A stretch of 64,000 nucleotides of DNA from the NCBI GenBank assembly GCA_965197475.1, contig CBDANF010000003.1, positions 3,200,001-3,264,000 on the forward strand, read 5' to 3'. The notes under the pieces are model-generated. The model saw only the letters and a list, made by a program, of their open reading frames with translations, searched no databases and was not told the DNA's origin. This DNA is from Candidatus Poribacteria bacterium (GTDB lineage Bacteria; Poribacteria; WGA-4E; WGA-3G). Position 1 is the first letter of the stretch. Each line of letters starts with the position of its first letter. The translations under genes and the position numbers were made by a program. Shown here one piece after another: positions 4,662 through 11,976 of this stretch.

Positions 4662-7241
4662 GTGAAAAAAAGTTTGTTTTTTATATTTTTGACACTACTT
4701 TGTGTTTCAACGTTCTATCAACCCAACGTTTTCGCTCAAGATTCGCCGCAATGGCATCTGCCTGAAGGTGCTACAGCGCGTCTCGGCAAAGGCTGGCTAT
4801 ATGAAATTCAGTATTCGCCGGATGGCACACGACTTGCAGCTGCAGGCTGCCTCGGTATTTGGATTTATGACACCGCAACCGATGAAGAAATTACACTATT
4901 GACTGGATATGGATATGCCATTTCTGCACTTTCATATTCCCCTGATGGGAGCATTCTTGCAGGGGGCAGTGCGGATGGGGTCATCCGTTTATGGGATCCT
5001 GTAACAGGTGAAATCCTACAGACACTCGATCGACATTGGGCAAGTATCCGTAGCCTCGTTTTCAGTCCTGATGGGAAAACGCTCGCCAGTGGTAGTAGAG
5101 ACAGAACTATTCGACTGTGGAATCTTGAAACAGGCGAACTGCTACACACCCTAAGAGGACATACAGATGGTATCAACAGTGTTGCTTTCAGTGCTGACGG
5201 AAGCACGATTATCAGTGGTAGTCGAGATGATACGATCAGAATATGGGATGTTGCCACAGGAGAAGAGCTGCAAACACTTAAAGAACATCGAGATAATGTT
5301 GACAGTGTTGTGGTCAGTCCCGATGGTAAAACGCTCGCAAGCGGAGATTTGAACGCGCTTATTCATCTATGGGATACGACAACATGGACGATCAAGGACA
5401 CCCTTATCGGACATACCTCACATATCTATGACATGAAATTTAGTCCCGATGGCAGTATTCTGGCGAGTGCGGGTGAAGATGACACCGTCCGATTGTGGGA
5501 TGCAGCCACAGGCAATCACTTAAACACACTTACCGATCATACCGCTGATGTCTACGGACTTGCTTTCACGCCGGATGGCACCGTGCTCACAAGTGGTGCA
5601 TGGGATGCGTCAATACGTTCATGGGACCCTGTTACAGGTGAACATCTGGAGACTATCACTGGACATACTGATGCTGTTGTGAGCGTCACCTTCAGTGCTG
5701 ATGGTACCATCCTTGCGACTCGGAGTTGGGACAAAACTATCCGCCTCTGGGATGCGGATACGGGTCAACTTCGGCATACCCTCATCGGTCACCAAGATGA
5801 TGTTGACATTGTTGTGTTCAGTCCTGATGGCAGAACACTCGCAAGTGGTAGCCAAGACAACACCGTCCGATTGTGGGACGCACTTACAGGCGAACACATA
5901 AAGACACTCAGAGGACATTATTCTTATCTGATTAGTCTTGCGTTCAGTCCGGATGGTAGCATCTTGGCGAGTGGTAGTGAGGACGACAGCATCCGTTTGT
6001 GGAATGTTGCCACAGGTCGTTACATGGGCGGGTTGTGGGAGCATGAAGCAGGTGTTGAGACACTTGCGTTCAGTCCGGATGGCACTATGCTTGCCAGTGG
6101 TAGTCGTGACGATAAGATTATCTTATGGGACATGGAAACACGCGATGTTATACACACTATCAGCGAACATGAGGATGATGTTTGGGCAGTTGCATTCAGT
6201 CCGGATGGCACCATGCTTGCCAGTGGTGGTGGTGACAAGGTCTCCTTATGGGATGTTCAAACAGCGGATCTTCTTCAGACATTCCGCAGACCGATTGATC
6301 GCGAAATTCCAGTAGGCGCGCCGGAAGAATTGACTGGAGATGTACCCACAGATCTTCCTGCGAATGCTACAAGTATTGTTTTTAGTCCAGATGGTAAAGT
6401 ACTCGTTAGTGGCAGTTACGACGCAACTATCCGCTTGTGGGACATTGCAACTGGAGAGCAGCTTCATACACTTGAAGGTCACACATATTCTATCACTAGT
6501 GTGGCAGTAAGTCCGAATGGAAGCATAATTGCAAGCGGCAGTTTCGATGGAACAGTCCTTTTGTGGGCATTCCCACTCCCGATGAGTTTAAAGCAAGTTC
6601 TCACGGTATTCGCAGATGTGAACAACGACGGTGTACTGAATATATTGGATGTAGTGCTGGTTGCGTCAAGTTTCGGAGAAACTGGGGCCAGTCCCGCAGA
6701 CCTCAACGGTGATGGTATTGTCAATATTTCGGATCTCTATTTGCTTGTGAACGCATTGAGAAATATTGAATCTGCGCCTTCTGTGCAATCGCTTTCAAGA
6801 GAGCAACTTACTGCAGCGCAGGTGCAGGAGTGGTTAACGCTTGCTAAGCAAGTACCGTCACAAATCATCCATACCTCAGAGTCAAATCGACTTTCTTATG
6901 AACGAGGAATTCAGGTGTTGGAACAAATTTTGCAAACATTGGCTCCGCAAGAGACAGCACTGCTTGCTAACTATCCAAATCCGTTCAATCCTGAAACATG
7001 GATACCGTATCAGTTGGCAGCACCTGCCGATGTTAGCATCTCTATCTATGCTGCAGATGGTAGGTTAGTTCGGACGCTTGCATTAGGACATTTATCCGCT
7101 GGCACCTATCAAAGTCGCAGTCGTGCAGCGTATTGGGATGGCAAAAACGCTTTAGGTGAATCTGTTGTGAGTGGCGTGTATTTCTATACGCTTACCACAG
7201 GTGATTTCACTGCAACACGAAAGATGTTGATTCTGAAATAG
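4662..7241 (+). CDS. Secreted WD40-repeat protein with dockerin-like domain and C-terminal FlgD-Ig/T9SS-type sorting domain
   Basis: Signal peptide; about 14 GH..FSPDG..LASGS.D.T.RLWD repeats; DVNNDGVLNILD/DLNGDGIVNISD; NYPNPFNPETWIPY...YFYTLTTGDFTATRKMLILK. Confidence 0.9.
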   Translation: MKKSLFFIFLTLLCVSTFYQPNVFAQDSPQWHLPEGATARLGKGWLYEIQYSPDGTRLAAAGCLGIWIYDTATDEEITLLTGYGYAISALSYSPDGSILAGGSADGVIRLWDPVTGEILQTLDRHWASIRSLVFSPDGKTLASGSRDRTIRLWNLETGELLHTLRGHTDGINSVAFSADGSTIISGSRDDTIRIWDVATGEELQTLKEHRDNVDSVVVSPDGKTLASGDLNALIHLWDTTTWTIKDTLIGHTSHIYDMKFSPDGSILASAGEDDTVRLWDAATGNHLNTLTDHTADVYGLAFTPDGTVLTSGAWDASIRSWDPVTGEHLETITGHTDAVVSVTFSADGTILATRSWDKTIRLWDADTGQLRHTLIGHQDDVDIVVFSPDGRTLASGSQDNTVRLWDALTGEHIKTLRGHYSYLISLAFSPDGSILASGSEDDSIRLWNVATGRYMGGLWEHEAGVETLAFSPDGTMLASGSRDDKIILWDMETRDVIHTISEHEDDVWAVAFSPDGTMLASGGGDKVSLWDVQTADLLQTFRRPIDREIPVGAPEELTGDVPTDLPANATSIVFSPDGKVLVSGSYDATIRLWDIATGEQLHTLEGHTYSITSVAVSPNGSIIASGSFDGTVLLWAFPLPMSLKQVLTVFADVNNDGVLNILDVVLVASSFGETGASPADLNGDGIVNISDLYLLVNALRNIESAPSVQSLSREQLTAAQVQEWLTLAKQVPSQIIHTSESNRLSYERGIQVLEQILQTLAPQETALLANYPNPFNPETWIPYQLAAPADVSISIYAADGRLVRTLALGHLSAGTYQSRSRAAYWDGKNALGESVVSGVYFYTLTTGDFTATRKMLILK

Positions 7242-7253
7242 TATCAAATGACC

Positions 7254-7366
7254 ATAGGATAGCTGGAAGGCTGATGTTTATTGGCTTCCCAGCGATCGTT
7301 GATGAGTGGGTTGCGTTGGGATCGCGAGCATCCTCTTTGAGAAATGATGCGTTTAGCGATAAACGT
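7254..7366 (-). ncRNA. Putative structured non-coding RNA (or structured DNA end) of the DUF1670 element
   Basis: Lies directly downstream of the promoter. Four abutting stems at 7350-7365, 7328-7350, 7292-7325 and 7262-7293. Strand is uncertain. Confidence 0.35.
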
Positions 7367-7372
7367 GTCTAA

Positions 7373-7401
7373 AGTATAGCAAAACCAGTAGCGGTTGTCA
7401 A
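7373..7401 (-). promoter_or_regulatory. Near-consensus sigma70 promoter pointing out of the DUF1670 element
   Basis: Minus strand reads TTGACA (7401-7396), 17 nt, then TATACT (7378-7373), with an extended -10 TG. Confidence 0.7.
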
Positions 7402-7468
7402 CCATATTTTCAAGGCACCTGCCCCGGTTTTGCGAAGTAAAGTTCGTCGGGAACATAGGATTAGGGTC

Positions 7469-8353
7469 TCATTGGGCTTCTCCTTGGTGAGTGGCTTCAT
7501 CGTTTGAGTCTGAATTGGCAAGGTCTGCATCTATGGCTTGGAGTTGGTGCTGCGGTATGAGGTCGAGATATTGAGAGATGACGCGTTTAGAAAGTCGTGT
7601 AATCTGTGAGATTTTATCAATATCTGCGGTTGCTTTCCGAACGACTTTGACGCTCTCATAATCGCGAATGTATCGGTCAACTGCCTCCTTAGAGTGTTTG
7701 GTCTTTGCGGCAATCCTGGGGGTGAGATGTCCTTGAAGATAGAGGGTTATGATCTCTTTCTTATGGGTAATAGCCCCCGATAAGTCATGGATATTGCCAC
7801 GGGTGGGCAAGAGTTCTCCAGTGGTTTTTTGCCATTCATTAACATAATCACAGACAACGGCATCGCAGACATTGAGCAAAACTGCCAAGTCGAGTTGTGT
7901 CAATAATGCCCCTTGGTCATAAGCTTGATGACACCAGCGGACCAAGCGATTGATCCGCAATTGCCGGGAGGTGAAACCGTTGCGAAAGGATTCAATATCC
8001 TCTGCGGCGAGGTAAGTCAGGATGACGGGTTTCATGCGGGTTTTGACGATGGACTTTCCTCTTTCTGGATGCTCTTCAATAGGGACGGCCATCCAAACGA
8101 GTTGTCCATAACTCAAGAAACGCTCATCCGGGAGTTGATCGCCGGTGGCGAGTTTCTCCAAAGGAAGGGTAATCACGAAATAGTCTTCAACGGTCTTAAG
8201 AATATCATCAACAATGGCGGTGGCAGTGACTTCGCCTTTGTCATAACCATAGTCATTGAGAAAGCGGTGAATGAGCAACTGTCGTAGGGACTTATCGTTG
8301 ATGCGTCTGAATTTCTTCTCGTTGATTTGCGTGCGGGTTAGAGGTTTGCTCAT
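7469..8353 (-). CDS. DUF1670-like protein (HTH-containing), paralogue 2
   Basis: Motifs QAYDQGALLTQLDLAVLL, PTRGNIHDL, THKKEII and KHSKEAVDRYIRD. ATGA overlap with the upstream paralogue. Confidence 0.8.
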   Translation of the reverse strand: MSKPLTRTQINEKKFRRINDKSLRQLLIHRFLNDYGYDKGEVTATAIVDDILKTVEDYFVITLPLEKLATGDQLPDERFLSYGQLVWMAVPIEEHPERGKSIVKTRMKPVILTYLAAEDIESFRNGFTSRQLRINRLVRWCHQAYDQGALLTQLDLAVLLNVCDAVVCDYVNEWQKTTGELLPTRGNIHDLSGAITHKKEIITLYLQGHLTPRIAAKTKHSKEAVDRYIRDYESVKVVRKATADIDKISQITRLSKRVISQYLDLIPQHQLQAIDADLANSDSNDEATHQGEAQ

Positions 8354-9150
8354 GAGAGGTCCCCCTTTTTTGTGTCCTCAGGTTCTGGGTGAAGGAGTTG
8401 GGTCATGCGATCTGTGTGTTGGTATTCCTCATAGAGTGAGAGATACTCGCGGATCAACCGGTCAGATAGATGGGTGATCAGGCGTATCTGTGCGTTAGGA
8501 AAGCCTTGATGATGGAGCGTAGCGACTTGTGTAAAGTCTTTCAAGTAGCGGTAGACAGCTCGTTCGCTGTGGTTCGTCTTTTTCTCGATTTCGGTGAAGG
8601 TATAGGCTTTGAAATATAACTCCAGGACCTGGGTTTTATGAGAAGTGCCGGGGCCCATGTCGTGTTTCGTCCCGCGCGTCATAACGAAATACCCATCCTG
8701 CTTCAAGTGTCGAATGTCGCGTTTGACTGTAGCAGGACTGGTGGTTAATAATACAGCTAAATCCTCGTAGCTCAGTAAGGCATCTTGGTCATAAGCTTCT
8801 TGGGTCAATCGGAGGATCCGATGCCGTCTGAGTCCTGCGAGACCATAATTCGCTAAGACTTCAAGATCGGCGTTTGTGTCATTGAGAGTTAGCCGACAGG
8901 AAACTTTTTTCGCTAAAGCGATATGTTTACCTGCGGGTTCCTCTGCGGCGACTGCCTCGTAGCAGATTTGCCCTGATGTCAGGTGCACATCGGCGTGTTG
9001 TTCAAAGTAGGTGGAAATCTGTTTATAGTAGGCTTCAGCAACGAGAGGCATTAGATTAAAGTCTGCTGAAATCTTCTGAATAATCGCGGCTCTGGCATTC
9101 TTGGATTCGAGCCGAGTGATACCGTAAGCGGTATCCTTCTTGCGGTTCAT
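8350..9150 (-). CDS. DUF1670-like protein (HTH-containing), paralogue 1
   Basis: Motifs EAYDQDALLSYEDLAVLL, TRGTKHDMGPGTSHK and NHSERAVYRYLKDF. GGAGG RBS favours the ATG at 9150 over 9162. Confidence 0.8.
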   Translation of the reverse strand: MNRKKDTAYGITRLESKNARAAIIQKISADFNLMPLVAEAYYKQISTYFEQHADVHLTSGQICYEAVAAEEPAGKHIALAKKVSCRLTLNDTNADLEVLANYGLAGLRRHRILRLTQEAYDQDALLSYEDLAVLLTTSPATVKRDIRHLKQDGYFVMTRGTKHDMGPGTSHKTQVLELYFKAYTFTEIEKKTNHSERAVYRYLKDFTQVATLHHQGFPNAQIRLITHLSDRLIREYLSLYEEYQHTDRMTQLLHPEPEDTKKGDLS

Positions 9151-9417
9151 ATTGACCTCCATGAATAGATTATCGGGGATCCGAGGACATCTACTCGTTA
9201 GTTTAACGAATACTAATAGTATAACTCATGGGGTCATTTGATACAAACTATAAGTAGCGGTCAGGGGTCAGTTTAGCACCGTTTTGCTAAACCATACACA
9301 AAATTGACAGTTATGGGTAGAGCGATAGCGAGACACGACATAGAGGCATTCGGCTATCGGCTGTCGGCCATCAGTCTTGTAGGTCGGGTAGAGTATGCGA
9401 AACCCATAGGCATCAAT

Positions 9418-10075
9418 TTAGTGATTTTTTCGCGATATTTGATCTCCTTGATGCGTTTTTGGGTCTCCTGTTCGGAAAGTTTTTGAGCCACCAAGCGCGC
9501 TTGGATACGCTTTGTTTTCCCAACAGCGACTTGTATTTCGCAAGTGTGTGGTTTGGGTCTTGAGCCATTTTAGTAAACAAAATGGTGTTTCTGCGTCGTC
9601 AAAGAGAGAACAATCAACTTTCAACTGTGTTATCCAAAAGACACCTGCCTCGGAAAGTTTTCCGAGGGTGTCAAGTGAAAAATAATCGCGATCTGCCAGA
9701 CGTAAACGCCCCGGTGTCCGCATCGGCATCTGTTTTCAGCCGTGCAATCCTGTGTGGTACCATCAGTGAATTGAAAGTGTTCAAAAGTGCCAGTGGCAAC
9801 ATCAAAGTGGTTTTCAAGGTCGATGCAGCTTCGGGCGTGAAACGCTGTTCAATCGCCTGTCGTATGATAGGTGTGCCGAGAACACCAGCGGTTTGGGCAA
9901 GTTCGGTATAGGTTGCATCTGGACTTGCTAACCAAGTGAAAACAAGTGTCTCAACAAACCGACTGCCTGTGAGTTTACGACTTCTTTCAACAAAACCATG
10001 TTGATGTGCGGTTTCATCGGCAGTCGTTGTTAGAATCTGTTGCATTTTATTGGGAACCTGTGATAATGTATACAT
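9418..10075 (-). pseudogene. IS4-family transposase remnant (frameshifted, internally deleted)
   Basis: Fragments GFVERSRKLTG..FVETLVF, QAIEQRFTPEAA and LRLADRDYFSL lie in different frames. The C-terminal half is missing. Confidence 0.8.
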
Positions 10076-10990
10076 TGGAAACACCTCTTTTGTAGAAGTA
10101 AAATGTAGTTTTTCTACACTATATAATAGACATTATAATGAATTAAATAGAAGGAGTTTCATAACGCCAGGGTCTGAAGTTTAGGCGAAAATTGTGTAAA
10201 CCACAACAGGTTTCCATAACTAAATCACAAAACCCTTTCTTCCAATTCCTGAGTTTATCTTTGACAATGCGGCATCTTTTGACACCACTAATCGCATGTT
10301 CAACGCGTATGCGTATAGACGCTATCTTTCTATTGTTTTCTTTTTCTTCATTCGTCCGTTCTCTACCTCTCGGTTTTTTCTTCGGTTGAATGATGTTTAT
10401 ATCCGGGAGAACGAAACCCTGAAAACCGGTATCTTGGGACAATGTGCTACCCTGTGGCACACAATAGCCCACCATATCGGCTATGTGTTTGTCATGGTGT
10501 CTTCCTTCAAAAGAGGGTGTTAATAGGACAACTTTGCAGGCCTCATTGATAATCAGATTATTTTTCACTGTATGACATTTCTTTTTACCACTATAATAAC
10601 CCTTTTGAGTTTGTGGGTCTTTGGGGCGTCGTATCGGGCGTTCGGTGCTATCATGAAAAAAATGTTCTCCTTCTTGATTTTGAGTTGATACTTTTGATGG
10701 AGCACATATAGGTGCGGGGTCTGTTTCCCGAGATGGCAACTCTCCAAGTTCTGCTAATGCTTTGTTCAATATCGATAAAAGCAAGTGAATCCATCTATTA
10801 GCAAGAGGTTGAGACATGCCAAAGAGCGCACCGAATAGCACTTGTTTCGGTGCTTCACGAAGGTAAATCAGTATAAATAGCAACATATCTTCAGGTGTAT
10901 CAAAACGACTATTTTTATACGGTTTATATCTCCGTTTTTTGCGCGGTTTTCCTGCAAGGGTATGTGTTTGAACATACTCTAAAAAACATT

Positions 10991-11976
10991 CGCTCATGTC
11001 AAGAGTAAGTGCTTTTGACGAGTTTTGCTATAAAATCAACACTGACAGCTTTTAGATTCATGACGAACTCACAGATTGCGACGTAACCGGCGAGGAACTT
11101 TTTATGAACGCCACGAAAGGGACGAAGGAAGTTTCGCAGCGTCGTCCAGACACCTTCAATCGTCCTTGTATGGATCTCGTAAAGACCATCACCGTCTGCG
11201 TCTCTTGCCCACTCGCCATCCTTATGGAGAACAATCTCACGGGCGCGCTGAATACGGTTATAGCCACGCCAACCATCCGTATACACCGTTGAAGTCGGCA
11301 ACGTCCACTGATGAACGTGTGTTGAAAGCGTCGCAGAATCGGTGTGCCGCACAACACGTAATCTCAGGAGACCGCTTTCGCGACCTTTCGTCCCAACAAT
11401 AGGCGGACGATCATTGTCATAAGTCCCATGTCCCCTGCGTTTATTGCCACGCCGACGCGGCGGATCCGAAGCATCAACGTGCTTATCGCCTTTTTCACCG
11501 GCGTTTTGAAACATCTCATCTGTTTCGACTTCAGCATCAGGTAAAGCAGCTTCGGGTTGTATCTGCTCTGCCGAAGTTTGGAGTTTACGTCTTATAGAAA
11601 GAACGGTTTGACGACTTAGACCCAGTTCACACCCGAGTTGTGCACTTGAAACACCTTGACAGACACCGCGCAAAAGCAGAACGACCTGTGAGGGACGAAA
11701 CTGCGTGCCAGCAAAGACCGTCCCGGTATAGAGGTTGTAGATGCTCTCACAGTGTTTGCAGCGATACACTTGTAGACCACTTGTTTCAGTCGGACGGAAC
11801 TTGCGTGCCTCCGCCACGCTCGCTTGGCATTTTGGGCAACACAGCCCTTGAAGGTGGAAATGATCCAACACCCACGCTTGAGTTTTTTCTTCATCCAGGA
11901 GAGATTGTATTGGAAAGTCCATAGGTAACACGCTAACATAACTTTGAAAAAATAGCACTTACTTTTTACATGAGCC
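10991..11976 (-). mobile_element. IS1595-family insertion sequence
   Basis: TIRs CGCTCATGTCAAGAGTAAGTGCT / GGCTCATGTAAAAAGTAAGTGCT. 8-bp TSD AAAACATT at 10983-10990 and 11977-11984. Confidence 0.9.
10999..11922 (-). CDS. IS1595-family transposase
   Basis: N-terminal CPKC...CKHC zinc ribbon, HTH, ETDEM, VYTDGWRGY, TIEGVW. Start is probably the ATG of MDFPIQ. Confidence 0.88.
   Translation of the reverse strand: MDFPIQSLLDEEKTQAWVLDHFHLQGLCCPKCQASVAEARKFRPTETSGLQVYRCKHCESIYNLYTGTVFAGTQFRPSQVVLLLRGVCQGVSSAQLGCELGLSRQTVLSIRRKLQTSAEQIQPEAALPDAEVETDEMFQNAGEKGDKHVDASDPPRRRGNKRRGHGTYDNDRPPIVGTKGRESGLLRLRVVRHTDSATLSTHVHQWTLPTSTVYTDGWRGYNRIQRAREIVLHKDGEWARDADGDGLYEIHTRTIEGVWTTLRNFLRPFRGVHKKFLAGYVAICEFVMNLKAVSVDFIAKLVKSTYS

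Follow-up and report, generated by a model that had tools for sequence, protein, structure and literature searches.

A conserved outward promoter predicted at the non-coding left end of DUF1670 insertion sequences in Poribacteria

Introduction

In IS10 of Tn10, a strong outward promoter, pOUT, lies just inside the end of the insertion sequence (IS) and yields RNA-OUT, a short non-coding RNA that starts with a stem-loop and regulates the element, overlapping the 5′ end of the transposase messenger RNA (mRNA) and blocking its translation. In the copy-out-paste-in IS families (IS3 including IS911, IS21, IS30, IS256 and IS110), a junction promoter drives the transposase after the ends have been joined; classically, its -35 and -10 boxes are located on different ends and are assembled only at the junction. 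Multiple end repeats serve as subterminal protein-binding sites in IS21, Tn7 and Mu. The IS110 bridge RNA acts with a partner recombinase containing DEDD (RuvC-like) and Tnp domains, and its two guide loops pair with target and donor, while the omega RNA is found alongside a RuvC nuclease (TnpB or IscB), with a scaffold that ends at the element boundary and an adjoining flank that acts as the guide. The IS110-family bridge RNA and the TnpB/IscB omega RNA were reportedly described by Durrant and colleagues in 2024, Karvelis and colleagues in 2021 and Altae-Tran and colleagues in 2021. Here, we analyse the non-coding left end of an insertion sequence encoding two DUF1670 proteins, together with a predicted outward promoter (P_out) inside it, in a 64,000-nucleotide stretch of a Candidatus Poribacteria genome (contig CBDANF010000003.1, positions 3,200,001 to 3,264,000, hereafter the window, whose own numbering is used throughout).

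These elements insert base-exactly into the last codon of secretion-cargo genes without a recognisable DNA-cutting enzyme, and they are present in 16 of 55 such genes of this sponge symbiont, so that any conserved extra component is a lead to their movement and to their coexistence with genes. The outward promoter is one such component, and selection on it is clear across three GTDB families of Poribacteria. Our preferred explanation, to which we assign a probability of roughly 0.42, is that the segment is the left-end control region of the element, and that P_out is a lineage-specific outward transcription unit acting as a regulatory 'guard'.

The locus can be compared with each of the described systems. 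As in IS10, a strong outward promoter is located inside one end and is predicted to produce a short non-coding RNA with a 5′ stem-loop; unlike pOUT, P_out is placed behind the last gene and overlaps no start of an element mRNA, and its transcript would be antisense to the host gene. With junction promoters it has in common outward-facing promoter elements at one end, which could drive genes once the ends are joined, but P_out is complete 137 nt inside a single end, and joined ends were not found in our search. With the bridge and omega RNAs, the locus shares the non-coding end of a small IS as a predicted RNA locus, base-exact insertion and the geometry of a putative scaffold bounded by the element tip. 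It differs from both in having no conserved fold, no covariation between loop and target and no Rfam match, from the IS110 system in having no DEDD protein, and from the TnpB/IscB systems in that Pfam and NCBIfam scans and a fold search with the product of the second open reading frame (ORF2) revealed no RuvC nuclease in the element.

Results and discussion

Outward promoter at the left end

Repeat comparison showed that the non-coding segment (7241-7468) is the 228-nt tail of a 2.02-kb insertion sequence with sharp ends, whose only genes, ORF1 and ORF2, are both on the minus strand and encode paralogous DUF1670 helix-turn-helix (HTH) proteins. Within this tail, P_out (7373-7401, minus strand) consists of TTGACA at 7401-7396, a 17-nt spacer, a TG at 7381-7380 (TGc) and TATACT at 7378-7373. 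Our promoter scan scored it 11/12 as a near-consensus sigma-70 promoter, with the TG of an extended -10 in addition, and it faces outward. The 64-kb window contains a single match to TTGACA-N16-18-TATAMT, compared with 0.05 expected, and 4 of 100 shuffles yielded at least one. Transcription is predicted to start on the minus strand at 7366-7368, 5-7 nt after the -10 box.

Of the 176 genomes of the phylum, 46 contain relatives of ORF2, frequently with many copies each, and we assembled a sample of 154 left ends, 67 of them distinct, from Poribacteria-phylum genomes and named genome records. A sigma-70-type promoter is found at the same place in 66 of the 67 distinct ends, with TATACT in 60, TTGACA in 45, the TG in 63 and a spacer of 17 or 18 nt in 65. 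The -10 box lies 136-138 nt from the element tip in 53/67 and 104-108 nt from it in 10/67. Per-position variability, computed over 45 full copies, is 0.093 in the promoter and 0.144 in the transcribed body, as against 0.19-0.22 at third codon positions of both genes and 0.275 in the spacer upstream of P_out; the inverted repeat, at 0.006, is the least variable part of the element. Across relatives, the spacer between the two promoter boxes is constant in length while its sequence drifts. By this comparative evidence, namely retention in almost all distinct ends, low variability and a spacer length that stays fixed despite sequence drift, P_out is real and selectively maintained.

The stretch between the ORF2 stop and P_out (7402-7468, minus strand) is the most variable part of the element and holds, at 7426-7433, the upstream arm of an 8-bp repeat (GCAAAACC/GGTTTTGC). 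It is absent in 4 of 29 aligned tails (L027, L036, L038 and L039, one per genome). In these tails the -35 box directly follows the ORF2 stop or overlaps with it, yet P_out is kept. An earlier note, made from the letters of the window, had described a promoter TTGACA-N17-TATACT with an extended TG at 7401-7373 on the minus strand, downstream of both genes of a DUF1670 element, bracketed around its -35 box by an inverted repeat and followed by no credible ORF. All of these observations were borne out: the promoter is present and conserved in the distinct left ends as described above, both ORFs match PF07900 at ~1e-61, the 8-bp GCAAAACC is found at 7379-7386 and 7426-7433, and comparison of relatives revealed no conserved ORF downstream of P_out on either strand.

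Since P_out is followed by no ORF, its natural product would be an element-encoded non-coding transcript, probably a regulatory non-coding RNA. An element-encoded RNA had also been proposed in the earlier note, and the part of that proposal resting on a conserved outward promoter without an ORF stands, whereas the guide-type architecture and analogy attached to it do not. RNA-library contigs from sponge metatranscriptomes of three studies cover 7236-7401 (X1, 7236-7394; X2, 7243-7391; X6, 7239-7401; X5, 7302-7625); being assembled, these contigs break at repeat boundaries, and they show no strand, ends or level.

A coding product was considered in two forms. One candidate, a plus-strand ORF running through the tail, was rejected: it is open in this genome's type and broken or frame-shifted in L027, L039, L070 and other classes, and amino-acid changes in this frame, judged by eye between L001 and L024, are about as frequent as under neutral drift. 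The other would be a leaderless small peptide, with an ATG 5-8 nt past the -10 box and a frame of up to 40-41 codons ending in the inverted repeat, which we consider barely credible. Such a frame of 40-41 codons exists in 12 of 34 distinct main-class members, one further main-class member has the same frame opened and shifted by a deletion so that it extends for 43 codons to the element end, and an ATG is present at the leaderless position in all 5 short-class members and in most of the divergent class. However, this genome's dominant type has ACG at the start position and hence no start codon, the frame ends elsewhere after 10-23 codons, insertions and deletions shift it between classes, and the start base also forms one side of the first pair in the 5′ hairpin described below.

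Insertion into the last codon of secretion-cargo genes

The element ends in 13-bp inverted repeats, GTATCAAATGACC, with the left terminal inverted repeat (IR-L) at 7241-7253 matching, in inverted orientation, the right one (IR-R) at 9232-9244. The Candidatus Poribacteria genome (5.7 Mb) contains 19 copies at 92-100% identity, window copy included and one of them interrupted, plus one internally deleted derivative of ~485 bp. At the left junction, which reads ...AAATAG|TATC, AAATAG is invariant in 20/20 copies of this genome, and the right junction carries AA(A/G) followed by TAA, TAG or TGA in 19/20. This invariant Lys codon and stop on the left, together with AA(A/G) and a stop on the right, place the element inside the last Lys codon of its target, to which it brings a new Lys codon and stop.

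In the window, the host gene (4662-7241, plus strand) encodes an 859-residue WD40-repeat protein (Pfam WD40 families) with a C-terminal type IX secretion system (T9SS) type A sorting domain, and its last Lys codon and stop (AAATAG, 7236-7241) come from the element. The C-terminal 113 residues match TIGR04183 with 39.4 bits (cut-off 23) over residues 25-111, and also match PF18962/PF13860. The target in 18/20 copies is likewise the ...RKMLILK* end of a gene with a type IX secretion sorting domain. Our own search of this genome found 55 sorting-domain genes, and in 16 of them the last codon is occupied by the element; the ...RKMxI..K subfamily comprises 42 gene ends, 16 of them occupied, and no obvious sequence feature separates occupied from free ends. 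The element is always positioned tail-to-tail with its host gene, whose stop codon consists of the element's first bases. Because of this arrangement, in which the element supplies the stop, host transcription must enter the element antisense to its genes.

A sister lineage targets not gene ends but the loop of a repeated palindrome (GAAACCGAGTTTT, GAAGAA, AAAACTCGGTTTC). These palindromic-repeat inserters occur in genomes G021, G023, G033 and G036 and on one metagenome contig (L050, L147-L151, L153, L168 and L190), and represent a wholesale switch of target class. Their left-end modules are nearly the same as those of the gene-end inserters, as seen for L045 and L057. More distant elements (L161, L189 and L195, and a further group, L172-L176) have shorter or different tails, each with a hairpin, and a clear TTGACA/TATACT was not found in any of these distant tails.

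DUF1670 elements apparently form an undescribed insertion-sequence family. A full-text search of one literature library returned no mention of DUF1670 or PF07900, and the titles and opening lines of abstracts of the papers it listed on Poribacteria insertion sequences and transposases point to no work on this element.

Two minor observations concern individual copies. The deletion derivative L020 (C3:94079-94563) retains ~190 nt from the left end, a piece that contains the -10 box and lacks the -35 box, along with ~295 nt from the right end, and resembles a miniature non-autonomous copy. At one site of genome G052 (L047 3207-3244, the same site as L138), a full element has its right end directly next to ATAGTATCAAATAACC, a solo 16-nt left-end remnant that is followed by a strong hairpin; an earlier copy at this gene end may have left the remnant as a footprint, which was then re-used as a target.

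Hairpins and folding of the left-end module

The four stems drawn in the earlier note are present: CGTTTA/TAAACG at 7350-7365, GCATC/GATGC at 7328-7350, GCGATC/GATCGC at 7292-7325 and GCTGG(G)AAG/CTTCCAGC at 7262-7293. On the minus strand, the stretch 7368-7241 folds with -27.8 kcal/mol (z = -2.35 against shuffles of this single sequence), and the plus strand of the same stretch folds with -38.0 kcal/mol (z = -1.36), so that this one sequence folds only modestly better than chance, and the caveat that the plus strand folds as well or better holds.

As an architecture common to the family, the four hairpins are not supported and survive only in part, with the 5′ hairpin recurring in about half of the relatives and a subterminal palindrome in all of them, whereas hairpin 3 is private to one type, hairpins 2 and 3 are disrupted in the short class, and a shared fold is missing. 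RNAalifold on 24 relatives yielded 3 trivial pairs at -0.3 kcal/mol, and runs on both strands with sets of 24, 34 (main class), 13 (divergent class) and 47 sequences (both classes together) gave a structure conservation index (SCI) of 0.01-0.23. When the structure of the earlier note was laid over the 24 relatives, 75% of cells were paired compared with 33-41% in slid controls, a margin that is expected because the structure was read off one member. An Rfam scan of 6000-11000 at E <= 1 produced no match.

The individual hairpins differ in what they reveal. The start-proximal hairpin (7350-7365, minus strand, CGTTTA-TCGC-TAAACG) has 4 of its 6 pairs altered on both sides among the 24 relatives and many G-U pairs on the minus strand, with z scores ranging from +0.9 to -7.7 and a convincing fold in about half of 23 representatives. 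Hairpin 2 (7328-7350, minus strand), whose 5′ arm is part of the conserved block CGCATCATTTCT, has a stem that is mostly invariant among the 24 relatives and is thus uninformative on pairing. Hairpin 3 (7292-7325, minus strand) is specific to this genome's type, its pairs at columns 54-83 and 56-81 being unpaired in 17 and 18 of 24 relatives, respectively. The class with 104-108 nt between -10 box and tip lacks 33 nt, and with them one arm of each of these two stems, the 3′ one in hairpin 2 and the 5′ one in hairpin 3.

Hairpin 4, when extended, becomes a subterminal imperfect palindrome (7258-7297) that adjoins the inverted repeat and carries the conserved loop AAUAAACAUCAG on the minus strand. 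This palindrome folds in 52/52 distinct relatives, with z scores from -1.1 to -5.6 in 23 representatives, and the plus-strand fold is the better one in 40/52. We found no strand bias in the palindrome, as departures of the G-U type and of the A-C type are both common: minus-strand folds contain 72 G-U pairs and 42 A-C mismatches, and plus-strand folds contain 116 and 28. In fixed register, 1 of 11 pairs has changed on both sides. With no strand bias and little covariation, the palindrome may be either an RNA hairpin on either strand or a palindrome in the DNA. Its stem is followed by CUAUCCUAUGG on the minus strand and by GUUGAUGAG on the plus strand. Additionally, a whole-genome search with a covariance model of the left-end module returned 20 matches, all of them left ends of this element, showing that the module is not common to other elements in this genome.

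Possible roles of the outward transcript

According to the guard explanation, the transcript would start near 7366, run for ~125 nt through the 5′ hairpin, conserved unpaired blocks, the palindrome and the inverted repeat, and then continue, in antisense orientation, into the host secretion-cargo gene at its 3′ end. A strong convergent promoter combined with a boundary hairpin would block host read-through or pair with it, and the palindrome would serve as a barrier or as an end-forming hairpin that defines RNA ends. The recurrence of a hairpin between ORF2 and IR-L even in distant elements without a clear promoter suggests a common need for a transcription barrier, which distant relatives may meet with longer hairpins alone. 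Control by pairing with an element mRNA found no support, the best duplex reaching -40.2 kcal/mol compared with -37.1 +/- 3.3 kcal/mol for shuffled RNAs, which is not above controls.

Several observations weigh against a guard. Lineages whose targets are palindromic repeats, not gene ends, retain the same module, which makes a role linked to host-gene read-through less plausible. The host gene, whose last codon and stop the element restores, could be expected to suffer from an antisense transcript directed outward, and a simple guard promoter does not require a near-constant length from promoter to tip. A terminator scan of 7258-7297 found no intrinsic terminator on either strand, with no U-run after the stem. 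The RNA-library contigs, carrying neither strand nor ends, may stem from carried-over DNA, so their coverage of the segment is no proof of transcription.

The main rival is a junction-spanning promoter, a role that we regard as doubtful, in which P_out would read across the joined ends of a circle or head-to-tail tandem and boost the expression of ORF1 and ORF2 in this transposition intermediate alone. This would agree with a strong tip-facing promoter that belongs to the element itself in either target class, with the poor -35 box (TTGTAT) of the element's own right-end promoter inside IR-R, and with the 2-nt AA common to both junctions, which would fit a circle containing one copy of AA. However, the joined-end sequence had 0 exact matches in metagenome contigs that hold 11 right ends, a thin search, and no head-to-tail joint was seen among the best 15 of 17 RNA-library joints. 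The 170 loci compared include only one junction-like site, the L047/L138 site at which a right end abuts the solo 16-nt IR-L remnant. P_out is also complete in the integrated state, unlike classical junction promoters, and the fixed 137-nt length is not needed for a junction role. In a reading that we consider rather unlikely, the signals would act in the DNA alone, the conserved blocks and the palindrome being subterminal binding sites for both HTH proteins and the RNA having no function of its own. The palindrome would suit this role, as its two strands fold equally well (the plus strand better in 40/52), both G-U-type and A-C-type departures are abundant in it and its strict covariation is weak; moreover, in the divergent class, a direct copy of the inverted-repeat TCATTTGAT flanks the palindrome on its inner side, and TCATTT is also found within the conserved block CGCATCATTTCT. 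DNA-level binding would account for the palindrome and for the recurring TCATTT blocks, but the promoter is left unexplained: no reason is given for the maintenance of both hexamers, of the TG and of the spacer length while the spacer sequence drifts, or for the start-proximal hairpin, in which compensatory changes occur and minus-strand G-U pairs are numerous.

A guide RNA would be the most far-reaching role, with the transcript forming a scaffold bound by the DUF1670 proteins and a loop or a flank-derived 3′ extension pairing with the target to direct insertion, but we judge it improbable. It would account for base-exact insertion by proteins in which, apart from HTH units, no catalytic or targeting domain can be recognised, for a transcribed body that is nearly fixed in length from the promoter and, like an omega RNA scaffold, stops at the element tip, and, if the guide were derived from the flank, for near-identical modules in two target classes. 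The complement of the palindrome loop (GATGTTTATT) even matches 9 of 10 bases of the host-gene sequence GATGTTGATT, which encodes KMLI, where our own arithmetic gives ~0.1 such 9/10 match by chance. As a means of targeting, this complementarity was rejected because the match does not covary with target class: the loops of L045 and L057 are nearly the same and their target classes different, and class-2 loops do not match the class-2 target. The covariation of loops with insertion sites that the earlier note had suggested looking for is therefore absent. Flank-derived guides predict clustering of flanks, which we did not observe, since the mean nearest-neighbour distance of the 16 occupied ends is 3.44 compared with 3.72 +/- 0.54 for random draws from the 42 ends, and 32% of random draws are as low as 3.44; similarly, two copies of fully identical type, L007 and L016, are located at unrelated flanks. 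The lack of a shared fold, with an SCI of 0.01-0.23, and of an Rfam match also speaks against a guide. Finally, distant elements whose ORF2 is 61-63% identical share the inverted repeats and the last-codon target, yet no copy of the module could be recognised in them and they lack a clear promoter; the module is thus an accessory of the Poribacteria branch that is not needed for the targeting or chemistry of the family.

The fixed promoter-to-tip distance would fit an omega-type geometry; occupied flanks are unclustered, and distant elements manage without the module. The analogy with bridge and omega RNAs drawn in the earlier note is not supported, given the loop that does not covary with target, the unclustered flanks and the distant elements without a clear promoter copy; a bridge- or omega-type guide RNA is unlikely, and the guide-RNA reading, unsupported though more exciting, loses priority among the explanations. 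In a related and highly improbable form, the transcript would be the missing specificity component of a transposition system whose two proteins are no more than HTH modules binding DNA or RNA, in which the 5′ hairpin, the subterminal hairpin and the inverted repeat, with a 3′ extension copied from the flank, steer insertions to look-alike sites. If true, this would explain how insertion remains base-exact at dozens of gene ends that have diverged, and how sister lineages could move wholesale to palindromic repeats with the module almost unchanged.

DUF1670 proteins, right end and neighbouring features

ORF2 (7469-8353, minus strand) encodes 294 amino acids, and ORF1 (8350-9162, minus strand) encodes 270, or 266 from the ATG at 9150 after GGAGG. 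Both proteins match DUF1670 (PF07900; E = 1.2e-61 for ORF2 and 4e-62 for ORF1) with scores of 208.3 and 209.9 bits against a cut-off of 25, and ORF1 additionally matches HTH families. We found no relatives of either protein in the PDB by sequence. An AlphaFold model of ORF2, based on a 76-sequence alignment, has a predicted local distance difference test score (pLDDT) of 85.8 and is almost all helical, with several HTH units; a search with this fold gave no PDB match better than E = 0.09, with sigma factors and winged-helix regulators at the top of the list. Pfam and NCBIfam scans of both proteins and the fold search with ORF2 revealed no nuclease or recombinase fold. At E <= 0.001, ORF2 matches ~1017 representative clusters (50% identity), and a listing of at least 120 homologous proteins consisted, as far as listed, of close relatives throughout. 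Fused paralogues exist as well, including relatives of 930-950 amino acids with three DUF1670 stretches and of ~520 amino acids with two (P0133, P0135, P0141 and P0143).

The right end (9163-9256, minus strand) comprises IR-R, the ORF1 leader and a motif resembling a promoter, TTGTAT-17-TATACT. An alignment of 34 distinct full-length right ends showed conservation of TTGTAT, of the spacer length and of TA(T/A/C)ACT, with single-base variants in L006 and L050. The motif, whose -35 box is inside IR-R, is weaker than P_out and falls below the promoter-scan threshold. Two small palindromes (ATACTATTAGTAT and CGTTAAACTAACG) are located over and after the -10 box. Judged from its sequence, the right end looks like an autoregulated ORF1 promoter.

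Among the distant relatives, the tails of L172-L176 contain a long hairpin whose sequence is wholly different between genomes while its pairing is kept, followed by a conserved ATGCCTnAAAAAACC motif. Genome G176, which is outside the 176 Poribacteria-phylum genomes, holds six identical copies of a 62%-related element, along with seven copies of a second DUF1670 protein family that is 31-32% identical to that element's own ORF2. In the window, the element is adjoined by a second, unrelated IS, represented at 10143-10997 (minus strand) by a gene for a DDE_Tnp_4 transposase and at 9418-9729 by short fragments that match DDE_Tnp_1 weakly.

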